64,000 bases of DNA from Acidobacteriota bacterium (GCA_965205505.1 CBDBHB010000009.1:1856001-1920000), one strand, 5' to 3'; numbered from the stretch's first letter, positions 26,206 through 39,610 are shown. Notes: a model not told the origin generated them from the sequence alone. Translations and numbers: made by a program.

Positions 26206-26946
26206 ATGGAGGTGAACTGGCGCCGCCTGCTCGGCGCTCGGATGAGCCGCGAGCTCGCCGTGTGTGTGATCTCGGAGGGTGTTGGGACGTTTTTCCTCAC
26301 CTTCATGGTGGCGGCGGCGATCTGCACCGACTCCTACAGCGGCGGCCAGCTTGGCATTGTGGGGATAGCGCTGGCTCATGGGCTGACGTTGGCGGCCATC
26401 GTCAGCTCGCTTGGCCACGTGTCCGGGGCGCACGTCAATCCGGCGGTAACGTTGGGGGCGCTACTCGTGCGAGCTATTGAGCCGTCGCGAGCTCTCGCTT
26501 ACTTCGGAGCTCAGCTGATGGGAGCGCTCGTTGCCGGCCTGATGCTGGCGGCGACCTTCGGCGCCGACGTGTGGCAGCCTGTGCACCTCGGCGCGCCGGC
26601 GTTGGGATTCGGCGTGGCGGTGGGGACGGGCGTGTTCTTGGAGATGATACTGACGCTCGTGTTGGTGTTCGTAGTCCTGCAGATGGCGGCCGACCGGCGT
26701 GCTCCACGGCATGTGCACGGCTTGGTTATAGGTGCCACGCTGGGGGCCGCCGTGCTCGTCGGTGGTCCCTTGACGGGGGCTGCCCTCAACCCCGCCCGCG
26801 CCTTCGGGCCGGCCCTCGCCGCCGGGTACTGGGCTTCCCACTACGTATACTGGCTGGGGCCGCTGCTCGGCGGTGTGGTCGCGGCGGTGTTGAACGGCTA
26901 TCTCAGCTCTGGTGAGTCGATGAGCTTGGGTGAGGACGGGGAATGA
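26206..26946 (+). CDS. Major intrinsic protein (aquaporin)
   Basis: Two NPA motifs (SGAHVNPAVT, ALNPARAFGP); alternative start at 26242. Confidence 0.92.
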   Translation: MEVNWRRLLGARMSRELAVCVISEGVGTFFLTFMVAAAICTDSYSGGQLGIVGIALAHGLTLAAIVSSLGHVSGAHVNPAVTLGALLVRAIEPSRALAYFGAQLMGALVAGLMLAATFGADVWQPVHLGAPALGFGVAVGTGVFLEMILTLVLVFVVLQMAADRRAPRHVHGLVIGATLGAAVLVGGPLTGAALNPARAFGPALAAGYWASHYVYWLGPLLGGVVAAVLNGYLSSGESMSLGEDGE

Positions 26947-28358
26947 GAAGGGTGGCCGCGGTGGCAACCATGGCGCTCTCGGGACTGGTGGTGGCCTGCT
27001 CGGCGGGCGCTCCAGAGATGACGGTACCGCAGCGACTGGTGCTGATCACCATCGACACGTTGCGCGCTGACCACATGTCGAGCTTCGGCTATCCGATTGC
27101 CACGACGCCGTTCCTGGATCGACTGGCAGCGGAAGGGACACTATTCACGCGTGCCTATGCCCATTCCGCGACCACCAAGCCCTCGCATTCGTCGATGTTC
27201 ACGTCGCTGTATCCAGTGCAGCACCGCGTCCAGAACAACGGTCTGGTTCTCGACGAGGAGTTCGAGACGATGGCAGAGCTACTAGGTGCAGCCGGGTATG
27301 CGACGGCGGCGTTCGTGAGCACGGACGCGCCGCTGGGAGGCAACGTCAGACAGGGCTTCGAGGAATGGGATCAGCATCGGGTCGACCGCGAGATGGAGGG
27401 CGGGCGCAAGCTGTACCGTGACGCGGGCGACACCGTCGATCGTGCACTGGCTTGGGTCGGCGAGGCGGTCGCTGACGGTCGAGAGAGCTTCTTTCTATGG
27501 GTCCATGTGTACGATCCCCACAAGCCGCTGCAGCCGCCGGACGAGGTTCTCGAGGAGGTCGAGGGCATGATCGCCGAGCTCGGCGAGCAGGCGTATCGTG
27601 ATCTGCTGGTGAGCCGTGGCATTCCGGCCGCCGACGAGGATAGCGGGGCGCGCACCGATGTGGCCGCTTATGACGCCGAGATCATGTATGCAGATCGGCA
27701 GCTGGCACGCTTGTTTGCGCACTTCGACGCCGCCGGCCTCAACGACGAGGCAGTTTGGATTGTCACCTCGGATCATGGCCAGGGGCTCGGCGCTCATGAT
27801 TGGTTCGGGCATTCCAAGCAGATATACAACGCCCAGCTCTGGGTGCCGTTGCTGTTCTGGCGCGCCGACGGCGCGGCAGGGATTCGCGTGCACGAGCGCG
27901 TCGTTCAACATGTCGACATGTTACCGACGGTGGCGGCGATCTTCCAGCTGACCCCAAACCAGATCATGCCCATGCAGGGCCGATCTCTTACGCAGTATCT
28001 GGGCGGCGGCCGACCACGCGATGCCGGATGGTTTGCCTTCGCCGAGCGTAGCTACTACGAGGATGCCTCGATGCGGCGGCAGCAGCGTGGCAACTATGAG
28101 GCCGGCGAGCGCTACGCGATCCAAGACATCGAATACAAGTACCTTCGCTACGAAGAGGGCGCCGACGAGTTCTATGACCTGCGCAGTGACCCGTATGAGC
28201 TGGTCAACTTGATCGCCGCCCCGGAACTCGCGGAGCGGCGCGATCAGATGCGCGACGTGCTGGCCTCTTTGTTAGAGAACATGCCGAGCGAGCGCGAGGC
28301 GCAGACCGTGTCGCCGGAAGACCTGGCGCGCTTGCGCGACCTCGGGTACTTGCAGTAG
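26943..28358 (+). CDS. Sulfatase-like lipoprotein with Thr at the catalytic position and C-terminal LRDLGYL tail
   Basis: Lipobox VVAC, ITIDTLRADH, TKPSHSSMFT, DPH, SDHG, DPYELVN. Confidence 0.85.
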   Translation: MRRVAAVATMALSGLVVACSAGAPEMTVPQRLVLITIDTLRADHMSSFGYPIATTPFLDRLAAEGTLFTRAYAHSATTKPSHSSMFTSLYPVQHRVQNNGLVLDEEFETMAELLGAAGYATAAFVSTDAPLGGNVRQGFEEWDQHRVDREMEGGRKLYRDAGDTVDRALAWVGEAVADGRESFFLWVHVYDPHKPLQPPDEVLEEVEGMIAELGEQAYRDLLVSRGIPAADEDSGARTDVAAYDAEIMYADRQLARLFAHFDAAGLNDEAVWIVTSDHGQGLGAHDWFGHSKQIYNAQLWVPLLFWRADGAAGIRVHERVVQHVDMLPTVAAIFQLTPNQIMPMQGRSLTQYLGGGRPRDAGWFAFAERSYYEDASMRRQQRGNYEAGERYAIQDIEYKYLRYEEGADEFYDLRSDPYELVNLIAAPELAERRDQMRDVLASLLENMPSEREAQTVSPEDLARLRDLGYLQ

Positions 28359-28359
28359 T

Positions 28360-28370
28360 CAGGCCACTAG
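28360..28370. repeat. Family A MITE end remnant CAGGCCACTAG between convergent stop codons
   Basis: Identical to the last 11 bp of element A (51977-51987). Confidence 0.5.
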
Positions 28371-29206
28371 ATGGTTACCCCGAAGCGTCCCTTTAGGGCG
28401 AAGGCGAGGGCAATCGTCAAGATGAAGAAAACGATCAGCCAGTCGGTCTCGAAGCCGAGAACACCGACAGCACGCGTCGGGTAGATAACCTCGATCTCGA
28501 TGATAGCCCCGTCGCGGGGTAGGGAAGGCTCGGCCGGGTACAGCAGCGAATTCAAGAACCCAGGCTTGAGCCTATAGGGCGATCGACGCACGACAGCGTC
28601 GGACACCACGATCCGCTTGGTGACGCGTTGGCCGGCGGCTTCGATCTGTACCTCGAAGTTACCTGGGCTGTCGGCCACGATCCGCCAGGCGAGCTGATTT
28701 CGCGCCGGTATCCAGACGCGCGGGCTGTCGAGCCGTAGACCGGCGGGCAAGCTCACGGCGGACTCTGGAGCGGTGCTGGTGGCTAGTCCGTCATCGAGGC
28801 TCACCTGCAGAACGGTCTGCTCGCCAACCGTGAGGCCCCGATACGCGTAGTGGAATTGCAGCTGGGCAATGACCAAGACGAACGGCACTATCATGAACAC
28901 CATCGGCACCAGGTTCAGGCCGAGATAGGTCATGTTGTCGCGCAGGATGCCGCCCTGAGCACGCAGGATCGCCACGATGTCGTCGTTGAACAGGCGGATC
29001 TCGAACAGGCCGGCGGCGATCTTGCGCTTGACGCGCTCAATCGCCGGCTGGTTGGAGGTGGCGCGGTATCCGAGCAACATCAGCACCGAGCAGCCCAGCG
29101 ACACTATCGTCAGCCCGACCATCGGGTGTAGCTGCCGAAAGGGCAACAGCATCAGGTCGAATAGGGGGCGCAATAGCCCGTTCACAGCGCCGAGAATGGC
29201 GTTCAT
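28367..29206 (-). CDS. Three-TM membrane protein, DUF106/EMC3/TMCO1 (Oxa1 superfamily)-like topology
   Basis: Amphipathic N-helix, TM1, charged helical hairpin, TM2 (PMVFMIVPF), soluble beta-rich region, C-terminal TM3 (WLIVFFIL..LKGRFGV). Confidence 0.6.
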   Translation of the reverse strand: MNAILGAVNGLLRPLFDLMLLPFRQLHPMVGLTIVSLGCSVLMLLGYRATSNQPAIERVKRKIAAGLFEIRLFNDDIVAILRAQGGILRDNMTYLGLNLVPMVFMIVPFVLVIAQLQFHYAYRGLTVGEQTVLQVSLDDGLATSTAPESAVSLPAGLRLDSPRVWIPARNQLAWRIVADSPGNFEVQIEAAGQRVTKRIVVSDAVVRRSPYRLKPGFLNSLLYPAEPSLPRDGAIIEIEVIYPTRAVGVLGFETDWLIVFFILTIALAFALKGRFGVTI

Positions 29207-29227
29207 CGTGATGTGCTCGTTGTCAGG

Positions 29228-29422
29228 TCAGGAAATGTAGCCGAGACCCTGGAGCTTCTTGCGGATATCCTCTTCGGAGTCGGCCTCCTCCAGGACGGCG
29301 AGCTCCTTCTCAAGCGCATAGGTGATGAACTCCTCGACCGAGGAGTATCCGGCTATGTCCGCATACTTCCTGACGCGGTTGAGTAAACCACTGTCCAGTT
29401 TGATCTTGCCGCCTCCGAACAT
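29228..29422 (-). CDS. Small ribbon-helix-helix (CopG-like) protein with C-terminal LQGLGYI tail
   Basis: IKLD..LLNRV..GYSSVEEFITYAL pattern; in operon. Confidence 0.75.
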   Translation of the reverse strand: MFGGGKIKLDSGLLNRVRKYADIAGYSSVEEFITYALEKELAVLEEADSEEDIRKKLQGLGYIS

Positions 29423-29459
29423 CCTTCATCTCCTGTTACCGGACACTAGGGACAGACCG

Positions 29460-31451
29460 TCAATTCGTCTCAACCGTCACCGGGGTGCTGCCGTCCGGGA
29501 AGCCGTCGATGCCGTACTCGGCGAGCAGAGATGCTGCCAGGTTCTGCAGCGACGACGCCGGGCGCGCCAGAGCGCGGCTGGTTAGCAGCACGCCCGGAAC
29601 CGCCGCCGGGTCCCAGATGTGGTCGCCTGACCAATCGTCGGTGTTGTCGGTAATGAACTCCGCTTCCAGCCCGCCGAGAGCGCCGTTGCCAGAACCACGC
29701 ACGTGCGGTGCGTAGCCGACGATGATGTCGGGCCCTATCTCCAGATGGCCGCGGTCGTGGAAGTCGCGTTCACGAATGAACACTCGTGTGATGGCCGGTT
29801 CACCGGTGGCCGGATCCACGGTGGCCAGCAAGTCACGTTCGAGCTGGAGGAGCAACTCGTCGCGGTCGCCGGGCGCCACCAGGCCCTGTGACTCACGGCC
29901 ACGAATGTTCAAGTACAGGGCGCTGATGCCGACACTGTACGCCTGAGTGGCGTTCCAGTCGACGCCGCCGAAGAACTCCCGAATAGGTAGTCGCGTGCGG
30001 CGCTGCAGCGCCATGTAGCCGTTCTCGTGCAGCCATGTGTTGAGGTTGAACGACCGGCGCCAGCTGCCAAACCCGTGGTCCGACATGATGACCAACAAGG
30101 TGTCGTCGGAGATGCGATCCAGCGTGTGGCCGACCAGCGCGTCGAACTCCTCGTACAGGCTCGGAATGATGTCACGATACCGGTCGTGGCTCTCGGCCAC
30201 GTATGCCGGGTGCTCCGGGTCGCGCGTCAAGCCCCACATGACATGCGAGATTTGGTCGGCGCTACCGAAATACGAGAACAGAAAGCCGCCGTTCCAGTTC
30301 TCCAGGAGATGCTTGTACTGTGCCGTCGTCTCGTCGCGGGTGAGCGTGACCTGCGTGAGGAACTCGTCGAGGTCGAAGACGCCCCACTGGAGTGCCTTGG
30401 TGTCCTGCGGCATCTCCTGCGTGTAGTAGCGGCCGGTGGCGTTGCCCAGCTCGGTGGCGAACGAGTCTGGGTGCGAGATCGCCGACCCAGGGTTGAGAGG
30501 GTCTATCTGAATCGGCGTGACGTAGAGGCCGAAGTCCTGACGCACCGACTTGAGGTAGAAGCGCACCGCGCCCGAGATCGACATTACGTAGGGCACGAGA
30601 TCGAAGTCGGCACTGACCCAGGGGCTCCACTCGCCCTCCTGCAGGATGAGCTCTTGGTCGTTGATCACGATCTTCACAACGGGGTTGTCGGGATCGATAA
30701 ATACCTCGAAGTCGGCTCCCACCGCATCGCCCTCTTCCAGTGTAAAGGGGTTGTCGGTGAGGGCGTACAGGGTTCCGCTGAACACGCCATCGATGATGTC
30801 GGCGGGGTAGATATGCCCGCCCGACACGTCGGTCTTCATGAATTGGCGGCGATCGGTGGAGAAGAACGTAAACTCGCCGGGCGTGCCGCCGAGGTCCGGC
30901 GTCCCCATGCCCGAGAGCTCGCGGGCGCCGGCGCCCACGGGCGGAAAGTTGGCAGGCATCCGTATGAGAGTGCTGTCGATTCCGTTGTCGGTAAGCAATT
31001 GCCAGAACGGTGTGCCGTACCGCGCCAGTTGGATGTCACCGCCGCTGAGAGGGAAGGACCAGCCGCCAAGCGTGAGCGACCTGCCCACCGGGGTCTCCTT
31101 GGTCATCGCTTGATAAGGCCAACCGAAGGGCAGCGGCGGATCACGCTCGAGGTCACGATGCAGGAAGTCGTAGATCCCATGACCGCCGGAGTCCATGCCG
31201 GTGATGAAGTTCGACCAGGCCACCGGACTTTGTGGGGTCAGCGACGTTTCCAGGGGCGCGAAGGTGCCAGAGTCCGCGAGCCGTTTGAAGTTCGGCAAGC
31301 GGCCGGCGTCGATAAGCTCCTGCGTCAGGGTGTAGTCGAGCCCGTCGATCCCCAGCACGATGACGTTCGGTCCGTCTGATCTCGGTCCGCCGCCGCAGGC
31401 GCTGATCGTCGATACGACCAGCAGCAGACTCCACAGCATGGCGGATCGCAT
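29460..31451 (-). CDS. Nucleotide pyrophosphatase/phosphodiesterase-family (AlkP superfamily) lipoprotein
   Basis: Lipobox ISAC, VLGIDG, PQSPVAWSNFITG, SDHGF, WSGDH; start reset to MRSAM. Confidence 0.85.
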   Translation of the reverse strand: MRSAMLWSLLLVVSTISACGGGPRSDGPNVIVLGIDGLDYTLTQELIDAGRLPNFKRLADSGTFAPLETSLTPQSPVAWSNFITGMDSGGHGIYDFLHRDLERDPPLPFGWPYQAMTKETPVGRSLTLGGWSFPLSGGDIQLARYGTPFWQLLTDNGIDSTLIRMPANFPPVGAGARELSGMGTPDLGGTPGEFTFFSTDRRQFMKTDVSGGHIYPADIIDGVFSGTLYALTDNPFTLEEGDAVGADFEVFIDPDNPVVKIVINDQELILQEGEWSPWVSADFDLVPYVMSISGAVRFYLKSVRQDFGLYVTPIQIDPLNPGSAISHPDSFATELGNATGRYYTQEMPQDTKALQWGVFDLDEFLTQVTLTRDETTAQYKHLLENWNGGFLFSYFGSADQISHVMWGLTRDPEHPAYVAESHDRYRDIIPSLYEEFDALVGHTLDRISDDTLLVIMSDHGFGSWRRSFNLNTWLHENGYMALQRRTRLPIREFFGGVDWNATQAYSVGISALYLNIRGRESQGLVAPGDRDELLLQLERDLLATVDPATGEPAITRVFIRERDFHDRGHLEIGPDIIVGYAPHVRGSGNGALGGLEAEFITDNTDDWSGDHIWDPAAVPGVLLTSRALARPASSLQNLAASLLAEYGIDGFPDGSTPVTVETN

Positions 31452-31477
31452 CGTTGGCCGGCCGCCGCGAGGTGCAC

Positions 31478-33598
31478 TCAAGGCCCAGCCGAGTCGGCCT
31501 CGGCGCCCTCTTTGAAGAGCGGTCGGCCGTCCATGTAGCTGGGAGTCGGGACACCGAACTGCTGTAGCGCCGTTGGAGCGATGTCGATGAGCGCAGGATC
31601 GTCGACGTCGATGACGCGATTGCAGAACAACACTCCCGGAACGAGCCGTGGGTCGACGCAGTGGTCGCCACTCCAGGCCTTCACGTTGTCTTCGAATAGC
31701 GGCGCATCGACCACGCCGGTGGCGCAATCCCAGGAAGTACGGTAGCCGCGGTTGTACCCGATGATGAACTCGGGAGCGTTCTCGAGATACGGACCCCGGT
31801 AAAGCTGGGCGGTATCGAACGCCTCGACGATGGCCACCTCGTCGTTCTCTTCGTCCCGTAGTCCTTTGAGCTTGGTGCCGATCTCTGCTTTCAGGGAATC
31901 GACTTCAGAGCGTTCGACGATGCCCTGCGACTCGCGGCCCTTGATGTTGAAGAACATACCCGACAGCCCGAGACAGTAGGCTTTGGTGCGTGACCAGTCG
32001 ACCGCACGAAGCCACTCGGTGGTGCCGTCGGCGCCGTCCTTGAGAGCGAGGTAGCCGTTGTCGAGGAGCCACCGATTAAGGTTCAGGCCACGGCGGAACG
32101 AGGTAAAGCCGTGGTCTGATAGCACCATCAGCAGGTCATCCTCGGTGACTCTCTCCAACACCTCACCCACGAGCTTGTCGTTGCGCACGTAGAGCTCCTC
32201 GATGGTGTCGCGACAGTCGTCTTGGCTGCCGTCGTCGGCCGGATGTCCCTCCTCGATGTAGCGCCAGAACATGTGCTGGATGCGGTCGGTGGCGTCGAAC
32301 ACGCACACCAAGCAGCCGCGGCGCAACCGCTCCATCGCCGCGAAGAACATGTCCTTGCGCTCGTCGTCGATATCGAATGTGAGCTCCTTGAAGTGGCGGT
32401 CGTCGATCACCTTCTCGTTCAGTGCCCAGGTATCTTCGGCAAGCCCCAGCGTCGAGTACTTTCCCTGCATCTTCGACAGGTACACGGCATAGTAGTTGGG
32501 GTGTGAGATCGGCATCGCGGGTCGCTCCGGATCGAGCGCGATGGGCGTCATGTACATGGAGAAGTCGCCGTTCATCTCGGTCATCATGACGCGCCCGATG
32601 CCGCGCACCTTGATGCCGGGCGCCGCAGGGAAGGTCAGCGGCAACCACTCGGAAAGCTCGCCGAGGACCAAGTCGACGCTCTCGGAGCCGAAAGTGACAC
32701 GCGCGCGGCTCTCGCCGCGGTCGAGCTCGGCGATGATCGGTATCTCCAGCGGAGGGCTGCCCTTGCGAAGGATGTTCTCGGGTCCTAGCAAGGTTCCGGT
32801 GACTCGGTCGCCCTCCATGGTTACCGGCACTCGCTGGCCGCCCTCCTTGAACTTGGTGCTTTCGGGCCGGGTGGTGAAGAGCAGGAACGTGCCCTGCGTT
32901 CCGAGAAGGTCCGGGACGCACATCGCCGATAGCTGGGCGCCATAGAAACGGTCGGGTGGAAAGGTGATGGGCACCCGAAGCACGGTGCTCCAGATATTGT
33001 GTTCGCCGAGAACGCTCCAGAATGGCTTGGACTTGCGCAGAAGTCGGAGCTCCGGTTTTTCGAGCGGAATACGAAAGGGTCCCAGGCTCAGGAATCGATC
33101 GACCGAACCGATCTTGGTCGACGACAACACCGGCATGTATGTCCGGCGGTCGCGGTCGAGAAAGTCGTAGATGTTGTGCCGTGCAGGGTGAGCGCCAGTC
33201 GAAAACGACGACCAGGCTACCGGAGAGATCGACGGGAACGTCGTCTTCAATGGCTTGTAGCAGCCCATGTCGGCGAGCTTCTTGAAGTTCGGCAACTTGC
33301 CTTCGGCCATGAAGCGGTCGGTCAACTGCGGATCCTGTCCGTCGAACCCGACGACGATGAGGCGCCGGATCTTGGGCGCCACCTTCGTACGGCGCGTGAT
33401 CGCCCGCCATAAGGTGCGGAACGGCCAGATCAGCAGCGAGGCGACGACCGCCAGAATGGTCGAGAACAGCACCAGGAAGCTGCTGATGAACGCGAAGCCG
33501 GCTCCGGGACCAACGTAGGCATCGGCCACATGCGGGTAGGCCAGCACCGACAGCACGGCCAGGACGAGGCGCGATACGAACCAGGACCGCGTGCTCAC
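31478..33598 (-). CDS. NPP-family (AlkP superfamily) protein with signal peptide, AYVGPGAG motif and TM anchor
   Basis: VVGFDG, SISPVAWSSFSTG, TDRIQHMFW, SDHGF, WSGDH. Confidence 0.87.
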   Translation of the reverse strand: MSTRSWFVSRLVLAVLSVLAYPHVADAYVGPGAGFAFISSFLVLFSTILAVVASLLIWPFRTLWRAITRRTKVAPKIRRLIVVGFDGQDPQLTDRFMAEGKLPNFKKLADMGCYKPLKTTFPSISPVAWSSFSTGAHPARHNIYDFLDRDRRTYMPVLSSTKIGSVDRFLSLGPFRIPLEKPELRLLRKSKPFWSVLGEHNIWSTVLRVPITFPPDRFYGAQLSAMCVPDLLGTQGTFLLFTTRPESTKFKEGGQRVPVTMEGDRVTGTLLGPENILRKGSPPLEIPIIAELDRGESRARVTFGSESVDLVLGELSEWLPLTFPAAPGIKVRGIGRVMMTEMNGDFSMYMTPIALDPERPAMPISHPNYYAVYLSKMQGKYSTLGLAEDTWALNEKVIDDRHFKELTFDIDDERKDMFFAAMERLRRGCLVCVFDATDRIQHMFWRYIEEGHPADDGSQDDCRDTIEELYVRNDKLVGEVLERVTEDDLLMVLSDHGFTSFRRGLNLNRWLLDNGYLALKDGADGTTEWLRAVDWSRTKAYCLGLSGMFFNIKGRESQGIVERSEVDSLKAEIGTKLKGLRDEENDEVAIVEAFDTAQLYRGPYLENAPEFIIGYNRGYRTSWDCATGVVDAPLFEDNVKAWSGDHCVDPRLVPGVLFCNRVIDVDDPALIDIAPTALQQFGVPTPSYMDGRPLFKEGAEADSAGP

Positions 33599-34887
33599 TT
33601 GTCGTACTCCCGTTCAATAAGTGCGGCGATCTCGCCGATCCAGAGGTCGCCTTCGATGGGGTAGGGTGTCAAGAGGAAGGCGTCGTCGTACGTGTGCATG
33701 CCCACGAGGTCGCTGCGTCCGAATACCGCACTCGCCGCGGGGCACGCCTTGAGGTCGAACCCCGGGAAAGCGAGAGCGACAAGGTCGGGACCGCGTGCAG
33801 AGCAAGGTCCCTGTTCGTAAATGTCCGCAGCGTCGAACACCTCGCGGACGACCCGTTGCCCATCATACCGCAGCTGTTTGATCGCGTTGGCGATCTCCGA
33901 CTTGAGCGCCGGCACATCGCTTTCGGCGACGGTGCCGCGCCCAAACCGTTCGGATCGATTCAGATAGATCCGCCCCGGATCCAACGCGAACGCTCGACTC
34001 TTCGGCTCGATCGAGGTCAGGTCCGTCGGTGCCTCCGCACCGAGGGTCAGGTAGCCCAGGTTTTTCAGAGCTGCGTTCAGCTGCACCTCCTGACGAATAG
34101 CACAGAAACCGTGATCCGACAGCATCCAGAAACAGGACTCCGGATCGGTCTCTTCGGCCGCGAACCGGTCCCATATCTCGCCCACCAGGGTGTCCACATC
34201 GTGGTGGTAGTCGAGGGTTTGCTGGTGGCGCGGATGCTGCGTGTCCGTGAGGGCGTCCCAGAGGTAGTGATAGAGGCGGTCTGTGCCGGTAACCACGACT
34301 TGCAGGAAGCGCCAATCGACCTCGTCCCAGAGCCGCATCACCGCTTCGCGCCGTGTTCGAAGCGTTTGCCGCAGGTCGCGCATGAGCCAATCGTGGTCCT
34401 GGCGGCTGCGCGCGGTATCGATATCGATGCGGTAGTTCATGCGTCGCAACGGACCCAGCCACCGCAATGGCTTGACCGAGCGAGTGAGATCCACTGCAAC
34501 GAAGCCCGAGACCATGACTCCGGGAATCGAGCGAGCTGGGTAGGTTGCCGGCTGATTCAGTACAACCGAAGTTACGCCGCGGCGGCCGAGCCGGTCCCAC
34601 AAGGTCGGAACGCGCACATCGGCAAAGCTCGGGAACGTGAGCCCGTAGCTCTGAGGCTCGATATCAGTGAAGCCGTAGATCCCATGCTCGCCGGGACCCG
34701 TACCGGTCATGAAGCTCGACCAGCTCACCGAGGAGATTTCCGGCAATGAGGCGCGCATGGAGCGGAGGTGGGCACCGGCAATGCGCTCCGCCAAGCGCGG
34801 CATGACGCCGTCGTCGGCGAGGCGTCGCAGTAGCTGCTCCGGGACTCCGTCGAGCCCGATCAGACAGAGTCGCTTGCTGCGCGACAT
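33595..34887 (-). CDS. Cytoplasmic NPP-family (AlkP superfamily) protein
   Basis: LIGLDG, EISSVSWSSFMTG, TDRLYHYLW, SDHGF, GMHT; no signal peptide. Confidence 0.87.
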   Translation of the reverse strand: MSRSKRLCLIGLDGVPEQLLRRLADDGVMPRLAERIAGAHLRSMRASLPEISSVSWSSFMTGTGPGEHGIYGFTDIEPQSYGLTFPSFADVRVPTLWDRLGRRGVTSVVLNQPATYPARSIPGVMVSGFVAVDLTRSVKPLRWLGPLRRMNYRIDIDTARSRQDHDWLMRDLRQTLRTRREAVMRLWDEVDWRFLQVVVTGTDRLYHYLWDALTDTQHPRHQQTLDYHHDVDTLVGEIWDRFAAEETDPESCFWMLSDHGFCAIRQEVQLNAALKNLGYLTLGAEAPTDLTSIEPKSRAFALDPGRIYLNRSERFGRGTVAESDVPALKSEIANAIKQLRYDGQRVVREVFDAADIYEQGPCSARGPDLVALAFPGFDLKACPAASAVFGRSDLVGMHTYDDAFLLTPYPIEGDLWIGEIAALIEREYDK

Positions 34888-34906
34888 TGGCGCCCCCTGC
34901 GAGCGA

Positions 34907-35506
34907 TCAGAGGTACCCGAGCGACTCTAGCCGTGCGCGGATCGCCTCTTCTTGCTCTGGACTAGTGTGGTGGTCCTCGGCGGGCGGAACGTATCCCATG
35001 AGCTCGAGACTTCGCACGATCTTTTCCCGGCTCTCCTCCGGCGTCTCTTTCTCTGTATCGCAGACGATCTCGGGGTTAACCGGTTCCTCGTAGGGATCGG
35101 AAACGCCTGTAAAATTGGAGATCTCACCGGCCAGGGCTCGTTTGTATAGCCCCTTGGGATCCCGTCGTGCCAGCTCTTCGATACTGCAGCGTGCGTAGAC
35201 CTCGACGAAGTTCTCGATCGCTCCGCGCAGCTCATCCCGGATCTCTCGATAGGGAGAAATGGCCGCAGAGACCGCCGCCACTCCGTTGCGGCTGAGCAGA
35301 TTACAGACGTAGCCGATGCGCCGGATGTTGGTATCGCGGTCTTCCTTCGAGAAGCCGAGTCCTTTGGACAGGTTCGTTCGTACCTCGTCGCCGTCGAGGA
35401 TCTCGACCCGTAGGCCGCGTTCGAGGAGGACCCCTTCGACTGCCGTGGCCAGCGTCGACTTGCCGGAACCCGAAAGCCCTGTGAACCAGAGCGTGAAGCC
35501 CTTCAT
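34907..35506 (-). CDS. cysC: Adenylyl-sulfate kinase with C-terminal LESLGYL extension
   Basis: [37 protein letters not shown]. Confidence 0.96.
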
Positions 35507-35544
35507 CTGAGCAAACTCCTTATGATGCCTCGGTAGGTGCCGAA

Positions 35545-36714
35545 TCAGGCCACGGCGCCGGCGGTCGACCCCTGATAGTGACGTCGCAAGATCTCCGCCA
35601 CCTCGGGCCGGGTGAATTCCTTTGGCAGCTCTTCACCGCGCGCCAACATGTCGCGGATCTTCGTGCCGCTGAGGAACACGTGCTGTTCCTTGTCGTGCGG
35701 ACACGTTTTCTGCGACGCCATGTTCTCGCAAGCGTGGCAGTAGAACGCGTGGTCGAAGAAGAGCGGCGTAATGCCGATCTCGAGCGCTTCGAATTCCTCG
35801 AAGATGGTGTGCGCATCGTAGGTGCCGTAGTAGCCGCCGACGCCGGCGTGGTCGCGGCCGACGATGAAGTGCGTGCAGCCGTAGTTCTTTCTTACGATGG
35901 CGTGGAAGATGGCTTCCTTAGGGCCGGCATAGCGCATCGCTGCTGGCAGAATCGACAGAGCGACGCGTGCGTTCGGGTAGTAATTGTGCAGCAGCGCCTG
36001 GTAGCACTCGAGCCGTACGTCAGCTGGGATATCGTCCGACTTAGTCTCGCCCATGATCGGGTGAATCAACAGTGCGTCGACCAATTCGAGAGCGCACTTC
36101 TGCAGGTATTCGTGGGCGCGGTGGATCGGGTTTCGGGTCTGGAAGGCGGCGACGCTGTTCCAACCCTTGGCCTTGAACAAGACGCGGGTTTCGCGCGGAT
36201 CGAGCCGCGAGCTTTCGAAGCTGGCGTGATGCGGGCGGTGTAGCAGCGTGATTTTCCCGCCCAGGTAGGAGTTGCCGGTCGATCGCAGATATGCGACTCC
36301 GGGGTGCGCGTCATCATTCGTCTGCAGCACCTGGAGGGCCTCGTGAGCTCTATCGGGCTGGTAGACGTCGGTCAACTCGAGCACGCCGTGTAACGTACCG
36401 TCGGGCCCCTTGAGCGCTACCGGGTCGCCGATCCCGACGTCGGTTGCGGTCGCAGCATCGACCGCCAGCGTGATCGGTATCGTCCACGGCAGGCCGCCGG
36501 GCAAGCGGCCATGGGCGCATACGTGCTCGTAGTCTTCCCGTCCCATGAAACCCTCGAGCGGGCTCAAGGCGCCGGTGGCGATCATCTCCAGATCAGAGGT
36601 CTCCCGACGGTTCATGGTGACGGCGGGAAGCTTGTCGACATGGTCGAGCCACTCGGTGCGTTCGGTTGCTGATGCGAAGCGGTCAACGAGGCGCCCGCCG
36701 TGAGCTTTGATCAT
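35545..36714 (-). CDS. sat: Sulfate adenylyltransferase
   Basis: [38 protein letters not shown]; start MIKAHGG overlaps upstream TAA. Confidence 0.96.
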
Positions 36715-36929
36715 TAGAGGTATCCGAGGTTTTCTAGTTTCTTGCGGATCGCCACCAGCTCGTCCTGGCTGAGATCGGAGGACGATGCCTCCGGTTCCAG
36801 GCTCCCGACCAGGTCGCGAAGCACGAAGACGATGAAGTCGGTGGCCGAGCTGAAGCCCGACCCGTCGATCACCCGCTGCAGCCGATTGTAGAGCGGCCGG
36901 GGAATCTTGATGCTTACGCGGTCGGGCAT
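36714..36929 (-). CDS. Small ribbon-helix-helix (CopG-like) protein with C-terminal LENLGYL tail
   Basis: VSIKIPRPLYNRL..GFSSATDFIVFVLRD; TAATG coupling to sat. Confidence 0.8.
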   Translation of the reverse strand: MPDRVSIKIPRPLYNRLQRVIDGSGFSSATDFIVFVLRDLVGSLEPEASSSDLSQDELVAIRKKLENLGYL

Positions 36930-37032
36930 GGGCAACGAGGGAATGAACTGCAGTAGGGCACGAATTGGGTCCTGATCGTAACCCAATTAGAATCAGATGC
37001 AAGTCCGATCGCGGCACCGGCCGCCGCCGACG

Positions 37033-37839
37033 CTAGAAGTAGCCGCGCAGTCGTTGCACCAAGTCGTCGTGCCGGGTGCCGTTGCTCCCCAGCAGGCCGC
37101 GGCGATTCACGATGTCGTGAGGGTCATAGTCGATCGGGCGGCCGTCGAAGTCGGTGAGGCGGCCACCGGCGGCGTGCAGAATCGCCTCCGGAGCGCAGGC
37201 GTCCCAGAGCTTTGTACCGGATGCCGGCTGCAAATAGAGGTCGCAAACCCCGGTACCGATCTTGCCGATCTTCAGGCCGACGCTGCCGGACTGCAGCATG
37301 CGCGAGATGCCGAGCTCGTCTTTCATGCGCTCGACGATCTCGGGGAGGTGCGAACGACTACAGATCAACGTCAGCTCGGCGAGCTCGCTGGTCGTTCCGA
37401 CGCGCATCGTATCGACGCCATCCGGGTGCACGCGTTCCGCCCCCTCGCCGACGATGCCGCGGTAAACAGTCTCCTCCGCGGGCTGGGCGACGACGCCGAG
37501 CACTGGCGTGCCTTCTACCACCAGCCCGATCATCACGGCGAACTCCGTAAGATGGCGGGTGAACTCCTTGGTGCCATCCATCGGGTCCACCATCCAAACG
37601 CGCCGCTTGCCGACGATCGCCGCGGGGTCAGCAGATTCCTCGGCGAGAATGCCGTCGTTGGGGAAGTGCTCCTGCAGCCGCGCGACAATGTGCTCGTTGG
37701 CGGCGCGGTCGGCCTCGGTAGCGGGCTCCCCACCGGCCTTGGCCTCGACCCGATAGTCGCTTCGGTAGTAGCGCATCAGGATCTCGGACGCCTCTCGCGC
37801 GATTGTCTCGGCGAGGTCGAGGTCACGAGCAAGGGTCAT
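37033..37839 (-). CDS. cysQ: 3'(2'),5'-bisphosphate nucleotidase (inositol monophosphatase family)
   Basis: TEADRAAN, LAEE, WMVDPMDGTKEF, SRSH, GSVGLK, WDACA. Confidence 0.92.
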   Translation of the reverse strand: MTLARDLDLAETIAREASEILMRYYRSDYRVEAKAGGEPATEADRAANEHIVARLQEHFPNDGILAEESADPAAIVGKRRVWMVDPMDGTKEFTRHLTEFAVMIGLVVEGTPVLGVVAQPAEETVYRGIVGEGAERVHPDGVDTMRVGTTSELAELTLICSRSHLPEIVERMKDELGISRMLQSGSVGLKIGKIGTGVCDLYLQPASGTKLWDACAPEAILHAAGGRLTDFDGRPIDYDPHDIVNRRGLLGSNGTRHDDLVQRLRGYF

Positions 37840-38517: not shown

Positions 38518-39610
38518 ATGGAGTTGCTGCACATGAGTACTGTTCCCACCGCGGAACCGTTGCTGGAAACCGAGCTGCCCGATGTTGACCTGATCCACCG
38601 TGGCAAGGTGCGCGACGTGTACGGAGTCGGCGATGAGCTACTGCTTGTTGCCACCGCCGGCGAAGGGGACGGTGCTGACTCAGCTGTCGTGTTTCTGGTT
38701 CGATCGCCTGCAACACGTGGTTGACAACCACCTGATCAGCGCCGATGTGGACGAGTTTCCGGACGTCCTGCAGCCCTACGCTGACCAACTCGCCGGGCGT
38801 AGCATGTACGCGCGCCGTGACCGTATCTCCGCCTTCGACGTGGTGCTGCCCGGAGGCGTGCCGGCGAAGGGGACGGTGCTGACTCAGCTGTCGTGTTTCT
38901 GGTTCGATCGCCTGCAACACGTGGTTGACAACCACCTGATCAGCGCCGATGTGGACGAGTTTCCGGACGTCCTGCAGCCCTACGCTGACCAACTCGCCGG
39001 GCGTAGCATGTACGCGCGCCGTGCCGAGCGATTCGATGTCGAGTGCGTCGTGCGCGGATACCTCATCGGATCAGGGTGGCGCGACTACCAGCGCACCGGT
39101 CAGGTCTGTGGCATCGAATTGCCGCCTGGCCTGCAGCAGGCGGCGCGGCTCCCCGAGCCGATCTTCACGCCCTCCACCAAAGCCGACTCGGGCCACGACG
39201 AGAATGTGTCGGTGGCTCAGATGGCAGAGCTGATTGGGCCGGACTGGACCGCGCAGTTGGCTGAAGTGTCGTTGCGCCTGTACTCCGAGGCAGCCGAGTA
39301 TGCCGAGTCACGCGGCATAATCATTGCCGACACGAAGTTCGAGTTCGGGCTGGTCGGGGACGAGCTGATCCTCATCGACGAGGTGTTTACACCAGACTCG
39401 TCGCGCTTCTGGCCGGCGGACGAATACCGGCCGGGAACCAACCCACCGTCCTATGACAAGGAATTTGTGCGCGATTACCTTTCCCATCTGGACTGGGACA
39501 AGACGCCCCCTGGCCCGGTGCTCCCCGAGGAGATCGTGCAACGAACGTCGGCCAAGTATCACGAGGCATACGAGGTGCTTACGGGCACAGCGTTGCCGGA
39601 CTTTTCCTGA
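38518..39610 (+). pseudogene. purC: SAICAR synthetase disrupted by a 163-nt duplicated insertion
   Basis: RGKVRDVY, DRISAFDV, ECVVRGY, DTKFEFG, DEVFTPDSSRFW; frame broken at ~38656. Confidence 0.9.
38656..39023 (+). repeat. Exact 164-bp direct repeat (38656-38819 and 38860-39023)
   Basis: Both copies read GCCGGCGAAGGGGACGG...GCGCGCCGTG, separated by 40 bp of unique purC sequence. Confidence 0.93.

Follow-up and report, generated by a model that had tools for sequence, protein, structure and literature searches.

A C-terminal LGY helix shared by sulfatase-like enzymes, an APS kinase and ribbon-helix-helix-like proteins: a candidate docking tail in a sulfate-activation operon

Introduction

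Why should proteins of different folds, encoded side by side, end in the same short peptide? The question is raised by a 64,000-nucleotide stretch of an Acidobacteriota genome (GCA_965205505.1, CBDBHB010000009.1:1856001-1920000; hereafter the window, from whose first letter positions are counted). An earlier note made from this sequence pointed to a C-terminal LxxLGY[LI] tail, here called the LGY tail, on four proteins of one gene cluster: a sulfatase-like lipoprotein of the alkaline phosphatase (AlkP) fold, two ribbon-helix-helix (RHH)-like proteins (RHH1 and RHH2), and the adenosine 5′-phosphosulfate (APS) kinase CysC. The tail was proposed to be a docking or sorting peptide, and full-text searches, tail sequences included, found no description of it in the literature. 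We report here that the tail is a discrete family whose home is a single clade of sulfatase-like enzymes, and that its other carriers lie in gene sets for sulfate activation. We interpret it as a portable protein-protein docking helix, a reading to which we assign a probability of roughly 45%.

Results

A discrete tail family on three carrier lineages

All four C-termini read as the earlier note had given them. The sulfatase-like enzyme (471 amino acids, aa; 26943..28358, plus strand) ends in SPEDLARLRDLGYLQ, with the tail (EAQTVSPEDLARLRDLGYLQ) encoded at 28296..28355; RHH1 (64 aa; 29228..29422, minus strand), in which the tail (29231-29290) follows an acidic linker, ends in SEEDIRKKLQGLGYIS; and RHH2 (71 aa from an ATG; 36714..36929, minus strand; tail at 36717-36773) ends in SQDELVAIRKKLENLGYL, an alternative TTG start at 36986 also appearing in the open reading frame (ORF) listing. 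The fourth tail belongs to CysC (199 aa; 34907..35506, minus strand; tail at 34910-34966). The tail is made up of a Ser/Thr-x-Glu-Glu start, 10-14 helical residues bearing an Ile/Val...Leu...Leu stripe, a Gly stop, a Tyr and an Ile or Leu, with 0-2 residues after Y[ILV]; it contains no hydrophobic stretch, and its narrow hydrophobic stripe has charged flanks. Three NPP-family enzymes of the same cluster (NPP1, NPP2 and NPP3) are tail-less, as had been noticed, with no LGY-type end at any of their C-termini. An internal segment of all three, SDHGF..LN.WL..NGYL, looks tail-like by eye and is unscored by the tail profile described below; it was rejected as a tail copy and is taken to be an ordinary fold element.

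We analyzed the frequency of such ends across the 5.98-Mb source genome of the window. LGY[LIVMF] followed by 0-3 residues terminates only 14 of 87,585 stop-to-stop ORFs of at least 40 aa, and 13 of these 14 have L..LGY. The 5,828 coding-like ORFs contain 36 instances of L..LGY[LIVMF], of which 13 lie within 0-1 residue of the end; for eleven control patterns made by permutation or substitution there was no C-terminal case in the same ORFs, and for L..LGY[^LIVMF] there was one. When 13 sites were placed at random, four fell within 10 kb of one another in 2 of 200,000 simulations. The four tails are not a chance occurrence.

A 19-residue hidden Markov model (HMM) of the tail found 19 matches in the whole genome at 20.6-29.0 bits (22.5 for the sulfatase-like enzyme of the window and 20.6 for RHH2), the next best scoring 13.2. 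Because no match lies between 20.6 and 13.2 bits, the tail is a discrete family. Thirteen copies are C-terminal and six are internal, 334-364 residues before the end. The carriers are 16 sulfatase-like proteins together with CysC, RHH1 and RHH2, and all three carriers that are not sulfatase-like are encoded in the operon studied here. The claim that the four proteins of the cluster are unrelated has to be revised, since RHH1 is paralogous to RHH2 (BLASTP, 37% identity, E 2e-12) and the two share the tail by descent; three independent carrier lineages are left. Across these carriers the tail sits on linkers of varying length and sequence, in keeping with the portability that had been proposed for it.

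The home of the tail is a clade of Thr-type sulfatase-like enzymes

The enzyme of the window matches PF00884 (E 6.6e-48) and PF16347, as do 14 of 14 other tailed paralogues scanned, the sixteenth copy being frameshifted. It has a Thr at the nucleophile position (..SATTKPSHSS..; T-T-K-P-S-H) and lacks the C/S-x-P-x-R motif; since Thr replaces the Cys or Ser of the formylglycine motif, we file it as sulfatase-like and not as a type I sulfatase. The genome holds 33 PF00884 matches. Twelve paralogues have the canonical C-x-[PA]-[ST]-R motif, and none of them is tailed, while the 15 intact tailed ones all have Thr (15/15, by eye). In a maximum-likelihood tree of 25 paralogues, built after removal of the tail from the alignment and with short or broken matches and the frameshifted copy left out, a branch supported at 100/99 separates the 15 tailed proteins from all others, and internal branches are long. 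As far as paralogue phylogeny can tell, this shows the tail to be an ancestral C-terminal element of one deep Thr-type AlkP-fold clade, with a single origin there.

Database homologues present the same picture. The window enzyme has 877, and of the best 120 of these, 108 reach 440 aa or more; 102 of the 108 terminate in the tail, and the remaining six have close variant ends such as ..LGYAP. The statement that similar tails end many AlkP-superfamily enzymes is thus borne out, with 16 tailed paralogues in the genome and 102/108 homologues; the tail is, however, confined to one Thr-type clade and found on 0/12 Cys-motif paralogues. L464, G468 and Y469, like the putative catalytic residues, do not vary across 83 sulfatase-like homologues whose identity extends down to 36%. 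The tail is also widespread beyond this genome: its profile has matches in 225 of the 401 genomes sampled from the phylum, mostly within ORFs of 450-1,000 aa. RHH1 is present in 109 of these 401, so that at least 116 genomes have the tail without RHH1. These tallies include three unpublished genomes (G049 in both counts, G152 and G024 in the tail count), whose removal shifts the RHH1 count by at most 1 and the tail count by at most 3.

The six internal copies show that a free C-terminus is unneeded, tetratricopeptide (TPR) repeats following the motif. They belong to paralogues of 810-948 aa (stop-to-stop ORFs L002, L003, L004, L005, L007 and L013, on contigs C4, C6, C8 and C9 of genome G000), in which the order is sulfatase-like domain, LGY motif, Gly-rich turn and a TPR domain some 350 aa long, which could itself be a receptor for the tail. 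Two damaged copies were also seen in this genome: a frameshifted paralogue at C9:775801-778738 (L015), whose tail lies in a separate 109-aa ORF, and a gene at C9:1136677-1138474 with a stop just upstream of the tail and a remnant, ..LRALGYIQ, in the +1 frame.

By eye, many sulfatase-like carriers begin with lipoprotein-type signal peptides, and the N-terminus of the window enzyme (..LSGLVVACSAG) resembles a lipobox; CysC and the RHH proteins have no signal peptide. Because its carriers include both signal-peptide lipoproteins and signal-less proteins, the tail would function on both sides of the membrane. This distribution bears directly on the idea that the tail is a signal for sorting, encapsulation or degradation, recognized by machinery for export, compartment loading or proteolysis. 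Such a signal would fit the C-terminal position, the conserved hydrophobic end, the many lipoprotein carriers and the presence of an insertase-related membrane protein encoded beside RHH1. It accords poorly with a tail common to carriers with and without signal peptides, which has no membrane segment, lies at a variable distance from the C-terminus (0-2 residues after Y[ILV]) and is internal in the six TPR fusions. Membrane-anchored sorting signals consist of a signature motif, a hydrophobic helix and a basic end; no membrane anchor of the LPXTG, PEP-CTERM or GlyGly-CTERM type is present in the tail, and NCBIfam sorting-domain models gave no match among the window proteins. Within the operon we noticed no gene for an encapsulin or a microcompartment shell, a genome-wide search for these not having been made. 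We regard this explanation, and with it the sorting half of the original proposal, as very improbable.

An added tail on CysC tracks neighboring NPP genes

The assignment of CysC is secure (PF01583, E 7.6e-59, 198.6 bits, cut-off 21.1; PRK00889, 258.3 bits, cut-off 244; P-loop GLSGSGKST present). PRK00889 spans residues 2-173 (175 of 177 profile positions) and the native fold ends near residue 175, so that the tail lies beyond the kinase fold as had been stated, residues 176-199 being a linker followed by the added LGY tail. In 20 CysC orthologues, down to 60% identity, R192, L193, L196, G197 and Y198 are invariant and the linker varies in length and sequence. The added tail (182-199) is identical at 7 of 18 positions to the last native helix of the same protein (156-173), and in related genomes this native helix ends ..LGELGYL; an origin of the CysC tail by internal duplication is therefore possible, to judge from this likeness. 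A search with the C-terminal region of CysC returned only six close homologues.

The occurrence of the added tail follows the neighboring gene. CysC is directly upstream of NPP3 in 17 of the 30 best NPP3 loci of the 401-genome sample, and 17 of these 17 CysC proteins have the added tail; NPP2 follows NPP3 in 30 of 30. Stand-alone CysC in loci L016-L090 has the tail in 9 of 9 cases, each at most 1 kb upstream of an NPP3-type gene, the two CysC sets overlapping in some genomes. Three fused Sat-CysC proteins, in which CysC is joined to ATP sulfurylase, have no added tail, and two of them end ..KLGYMGG. Fourteen further genomes have CysC elsewhere, 11 beside another NPP-family gene and three without an NPP gene in the stretch fetched. 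Of the 11 CysC proteins beside another NPP gene, 10 have an LGY-type end and the eleventh ends ELGLL; one of the 10 has an added tail, and the ends formed by the native last helix include four LGYL and one each of LGYIEKDA, AGYLE, RGYLD and LNYI. In the three loci where no NPP gene is adjacent, none of the CysC proteins has such an end (..AMGCLKSE, ..KREIIKKA and ..GIISPNKQ), and RHH2 beside two of these three NPP-less Sat-CysC loci is still tailed. The genomes compared are mutually related, and these adjacency counts are not independent events. In two genomes a Sat protein, with its PUA_2 and ATP-sulfurylase domains, is fused to a full NPP (PF01663) domain in a single ORF (L073:12003-14636, 878 aa; L076:2397-5024, 876 aa). 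These predicted fusions tie sulfate activation to NPP enzymes independently of the tail.

RHH1 is embedded in an NPP and membrane protein module

Databases contain 979 homologues of RHH1, with identities of 78-94% for the best 120. Clustering at 50% leaves 313 representatives, and 111 of the best 150 end in the tail, the rest looking mostly truncated or frameshifted. Across 75 RHH1 sequences, the most distant at 41% identity, every column except L60, G61 and Y62 varies; judged by such column conservation, the tail is under stronger selection than its carriers. The fold assignment comes from distant matches. Neither RHH1 nor RHH2 matched Pfam or NCBIfam at E <= 0.01 and the RHH1 sequence matched nothing in the PDB at E <= 10; the RHH1 family profile aligned over positions 4-46 with the N-terminal RHH domain of NikR at a weak E of 0.035 (about 0.4 for other NikR chains), and one source, JGI, labels homologues as CopG/Arc/MetJ family regulators. 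Upstream of NPP2, in 38 loci, we saw no common 8-mer, obvious palindrome or conserved operator.

We examined 75 RHH1 loci, one genome per species, from at least 10 phyla overall (Acidobacteriota, Gemmatimonadota, Gammaproteobacteria, Myxococcota, Sumerlaeota, Krumholzibacteriia, Fibrobacteraceae, Planctomycetota, Verrucomicrobiota and Eiseniibacteriota among the groups represented). The gene order NPP-RHH1-MEM279, where MEM279 is a 279-aa membrane protein, is found in 67 of the 75, the eight exceptions being mostly contig ends, and MEM279 is directly downstream of RHH1 in 71. Genes for 3′-phosphoadenosine 5′-phosphosulfate (PAPS) lie beside this module in only 9-12 of the 75 loci. Every copy that the tail HMM matched in these loci is C-terminal: 67 are on RHH1, 16 on sulfatase-like proteins, four on RHH2 and four on CysC; further matches were two NPP-labelled ORFs, one a run-on ORF and the other (in L045) a true NPP-family protein with the tail in cis, and four others. 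The RHH2 tail is kept in all five loci of L016-L090 that have RHH2 and in both RHH2 proteins of L121-L134. Together with the 17/17 CysC-NPP3 pairs, these data bear out the proposed association of tailed CysC and RHH proteins with tail-less NPP genes. Judged from gene content, they show that the RHH and CysC carriers sit in gene sets joining predicted sulfate activation (Sat, CysC, CysQ) and tail-less NPP enzymes. Apparent NPP-RHH1 and RHH1-membrane protein fusions (P0129, P0252 and P0246) were rejected because their junctions resemble frameshifts or read-through.

MEM279 (28367..29206, minus strand) is a putative distant EMC3/TMCO1-like relative within the Oxa1 superfamily. The window copy has no Pfam or NCBIfam match, and 8 of 42 family members, the window copy not among them, match PF01956 (EMC3/TMCO1/DUF106; best E 4.6e-5); an ESM Atlas lead stands at 0.86. 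In a helix pattern read by eye, an additional domain of some 140 aa separates its second membrane helix from its third. Since MEM279 is an equally constant neighbor of RHH1, it would be an alternative tail receptor to the NPP enzymes.

Predicted structure of the tail

AlphaFold2 modelled the sulfatase-like enzyme (83-sequence alignment) with a mean predicted local distance difference test (pLDDT) of 92.1 and gave the tail a helix spanning 458-467; pLDDT is 87 over residues 451-460, 81 over 461-470 and 59 at the final position. The proposal that the tail is a helix lying in cis on an AlkP enzyme is in line with these predicted values of 81-87. Compared with the model by structural alignment, most solved sulfatases stop at residue 449-455, although at least one fifth of the rows cover 27-459, and sequence alignments from a PDB search reach only about residue 442-452. 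Because most solved sulfatases end before the tail, the tail helix would be an addition of this clade. Foldseek returned nothing informative on the tail. The model of CysC (20 sequences; mean pLDDT 84.5) places its native last helix, 156-169, at about 96; the extension, which includes a helix at 183-196, scores 75, 75 and 83 in its successive ten-residue blocks.

These monomer models would fit a purely structural role in cis, in which the helix would stabilize its own protein or dimer and the shared pattern would be a reused or convergent helix-capping solution. The tail is predicted with pLDDT 81-87 on the sulfatase-like monomer and, counting the linker, 75-83 on that of CysC; the pattern recurs in the native last helix of CysC; and L-x-x-L-G-Y would suit a Gly-based helix C-cap. 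Such ends also exist elsewhere: against the PDB, the RHH1 family profile found its best match, weak at E 0.0014, between tail positions 35-64 and a eukaryotic ribosomal protein uL13 chain from a solved 80S ribosome (4v91_O), which ends in the look-alike ..SDVAKQLAALGY. A private cap would nevertheless require three unrelated folds each to offer a site for an identical, invariant L-G-Y, on linkers that differ in length and sequence. Nor does it account for a 64-aa RHH1 whose tail is more conserved than its fold, or for a CysC tail whose distribution tracks the neighboring gene, and we consider it unlikely as the whole explanation.

The same observations can be read in terms of self-association, the tails bundling with one another and turning dimeric carriers (RHH, CysC, AlkP) into higher oligomers or mixed assemblies within each compartment. 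This would explain a motif on unrelated folds in two compartments without a common receptor, and the narrow hydrophobic stripe with charged flanks would suit it. The RHH2 and CysC tails are the most alike, both ending exactly at GYL, and several RHH1 genomes contain a single tail-profile match, so that a second tailed protein is unneeded. By the standards of coiled coils, however, 10-14 residues make a short helix for stable bundling, the AlphaFold2 monomers already place the tail at pLDDT 75-87 with no second copy, and the restriction of LGY ends on CysC to positions beside NPP genes is left unexplained. Self-association, too, seems to us improbable. A complex of NPP2 (28-706), MEM279 and RHH1 (35-64), predicted with own alignments and without controls, gave scores of 0.02 and 0.00 (mark, 0.32), an outcome that counts neither for nor against an interaction.

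The operon and its tail-less enzymes

The carriers other than the sulfatase-like enzyme belong to one minus-strand operon in the order CysQ-like, RHH2, Sat, CysC, NPP3, NPP2, NPP1, RHH1, MEM279, on which the plus-strand sulfatase-like gene converges. Its first gene (37033..37839) encodes a CysQ-like 3′(2′),5′-bisphosphate nucleotidase (PF00459, E 1.5e-53; TIGR01331, E 4.7e-51, below the curated cut-off). Enzymes of the CysQ type remove 3′-phosphoadenosine 5′-phosphate (PAP), which PAPS-dependent sulfotransfer leaves behind. Sat (ATP sulfurylase, 389 aa; 35545..36714, minus strand; PF01747 and PF14306; PRK04149, E 4.9e-166) has a start codon that, from the coordinates, overlaps the RHH2 stop codon by one base.

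All three NPP enzymes are encoded on the minus strand and match PF01663, with a cut-off of 23 bits, and alignment suggests Ser as their nucleophile. NPP3 (33595..34887; E 6.8e-31, 108.6 bits, whole profile), directly downstream of CysC, is a soluble protein without a signal peptide, and matches to it at E <= 1e-30 occur in 81 of 401 genomes, some of them to paralogues. NPP1 (29460..31451; E 4.7e-27, 95.9 bits), whose start (MRSAMLW..) was chosen by eye, has a lipoprotein-type signal peptide; a signal peptide or lipobox is present in 31 of 59 homologues by regular expression and in more by eye. NPP2 (31478..33598; E 1.1e-29, 104.6 bits) and its homologues (42/42) have a signal-peptide-like start ending A-x-A, followed by a Y[IV]GPGAG(F) motif, a membrane helix and a basic stretch; Y28, G30, P31, G32, A33 and G34 are invariant. 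We know of no described motif like this one (window 33440-33598, minus strand). By the positive-inside rule, the catalytic domain of NPP2 is probably cytoplasmic.

The operon makes PAPS and removes PAP, and no canonical sulfotransferase is found in it among Pfam and NCBIfam matches. This raises the idea that the Tyr of the tail is itself the acceptor, sulfated or phosphorylated by the AlkP-fold enzymes and acting as a carrier or sensor. The Tyr is invariant in every carrier family, and sulfatase-like AlkP proteins have been established as sulfotransferases in Halobacterium salinarum (PMC11980604). The Gly and the two Leu are nonetheless as invariant as the Tyr, as would be expected of packing, and exported tails would, on general grounds, have no access to PAPS; a modified Tyr is accordingly a very long shot in our view.

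Elsewhere in the window, at 38656-39023, is a perfect 204-bp tandem duplication (1.8 copies, 100% match) that repeats 68 codons in frame inside a SAICAR-synthase-like ORF (38600-39610); it is either a very recent event or an assembly artefact.

Discussion

We favor the interpretation that the LGY tail is a docking tag, because an invariant L-G-Y on three unrelated folds argues against three private packing sites. Docking in trans on NPP enzymes is plausible. In the sulfatase-like clade the tail would pack on its own enzyme; in the cytoplasm it would tether CysC and the RHH proteins to a partner from the same gene cassette. Since the home of the tail is an AlkP fold and CysC has an LGY end only beside NPP genes, the best receptor candidates would be NPP3 and NPP2, both of AlkP fold, followed by the EMC3-like membrane protein. 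Such tethering could deliver PAPS straight to the enzyme consuming it and could couple the RHH proteins to that enzyme's state. A more elaborate scheme, which we offer tentatively and regard as doubtful, is that the LGY helix is an AlkP-fold assembly tag that tail-less NPP enzymes obtain in trans from CysC and the RHH proteins, so that PAPS synthesis and a regulator would be held on AlkP-fold sulfotransferases at the inner membrane beside the EMC3-like protein.

Several points weigh against docking. In the CysC monomer the tail is predicted at pLDDT 75-83 and may pack back on CysC itself, and the native last helix of CysC, with the same pattern (7/18), indicates that the motif can be an ordinary part of a fold. 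The tail in 225 of 401 genomes against RHH1 in 109 implies that its primary role does not depend on the cassette. Because many carriers are signal-peptide lipoproteins, exported and cytoplasmic tails would have no receptor molecule in common. Finally, kinship among the genomes inflates the apparent independence of the adjacency counts.

The tail, at 15-19 residues and more conserved than its carriers, provides an experimental handle on an unstudied module present in at least 10 bacterial phyla. It links a regulator-like protein, a PAPS-making enzyme and a large uncharacterized clade of phosphatase fold. A receptor for it would show whether the NPP enzymes are the missing sulfotransferases, how activated sulfate is transferred at the membrane and whether the RHH proteins sense enzyme occupancy. 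It is also a simple annotation mark that separates Thr-type sulfatase-like enzymes from true sulfatases.

Comparison with known systems

The upstream half of the operon resembles a cluster of Pyrococcus yayanosii, PYCH_17520-17560, described by Jin et al. (2021, PMC8268124) as copG-sat-pApase-type I phosphodiesterase-cysC. The parallel comprises a CopG/RHH protein, ATP sulfurylase, a PAP phosphatase, an NPP enzyme and APS kinase, the PAP phosphatase being a DHH enzyme in P. yayanosii and CysQ-type here; the authors' guess is that the archaeal NPP enzyme degrades pyrophosphate, and we found no mention there of a tail common to these proteins. A second precedent is found in H. salinarum, where VNG1056C and VNG1057C (mBio 2025, PMC11980604) are sulfatase-like AlkP sulfotransferases, one membrane-linked and one soluble. 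Their substrate is described there as an archaeal N-glycan, whereas the enzymes of the window are known from sequence alone. On this precedent, and by analogy, the AlkP-fold enzymes of the window are reasonable candidates for the sulfotransferases of the operon.

The likeness to uL13 is of another kind. Chain 4v91_O ends in ..AESDVAKQLAALGY(MS), with the same succession of start, helix and LGY in an unrelated protein and context, and convergence is the most likely explanation.

Among portable C-terminal modules, SHOCT (PF09851) is a short unit found on many unrelated bacterial proteins, with a proposed role in oligomerization. The LGY tail is likewise a small portable C-terminal unit on unrelated carriers; it differs in its pattern and in being limited to one enzyme clade and one pathway, and SHOCT had no match in 24 carriers and neighbors scanned at E <= 0.01 or 0.001, nor did any Pfam family fall on the tail regions.

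Conserved C-terminal tips that recruit partners from variable, often acidic linkers are well known in the acidic tip of the single-stranded DNA-binding protein SSB and in the EEVD end of Hsp70 and Hsp90, which binds TPR domains. Those tips are extended and need a free carboxyl group, whereas the LGY tail is a capped helix that tolerates 0-2 extra residues and an internal position. Like them, it is a short and strictly conserved end on a variable linker, and the six proteins that join tail and TPR domain make the TPR link suggestive.

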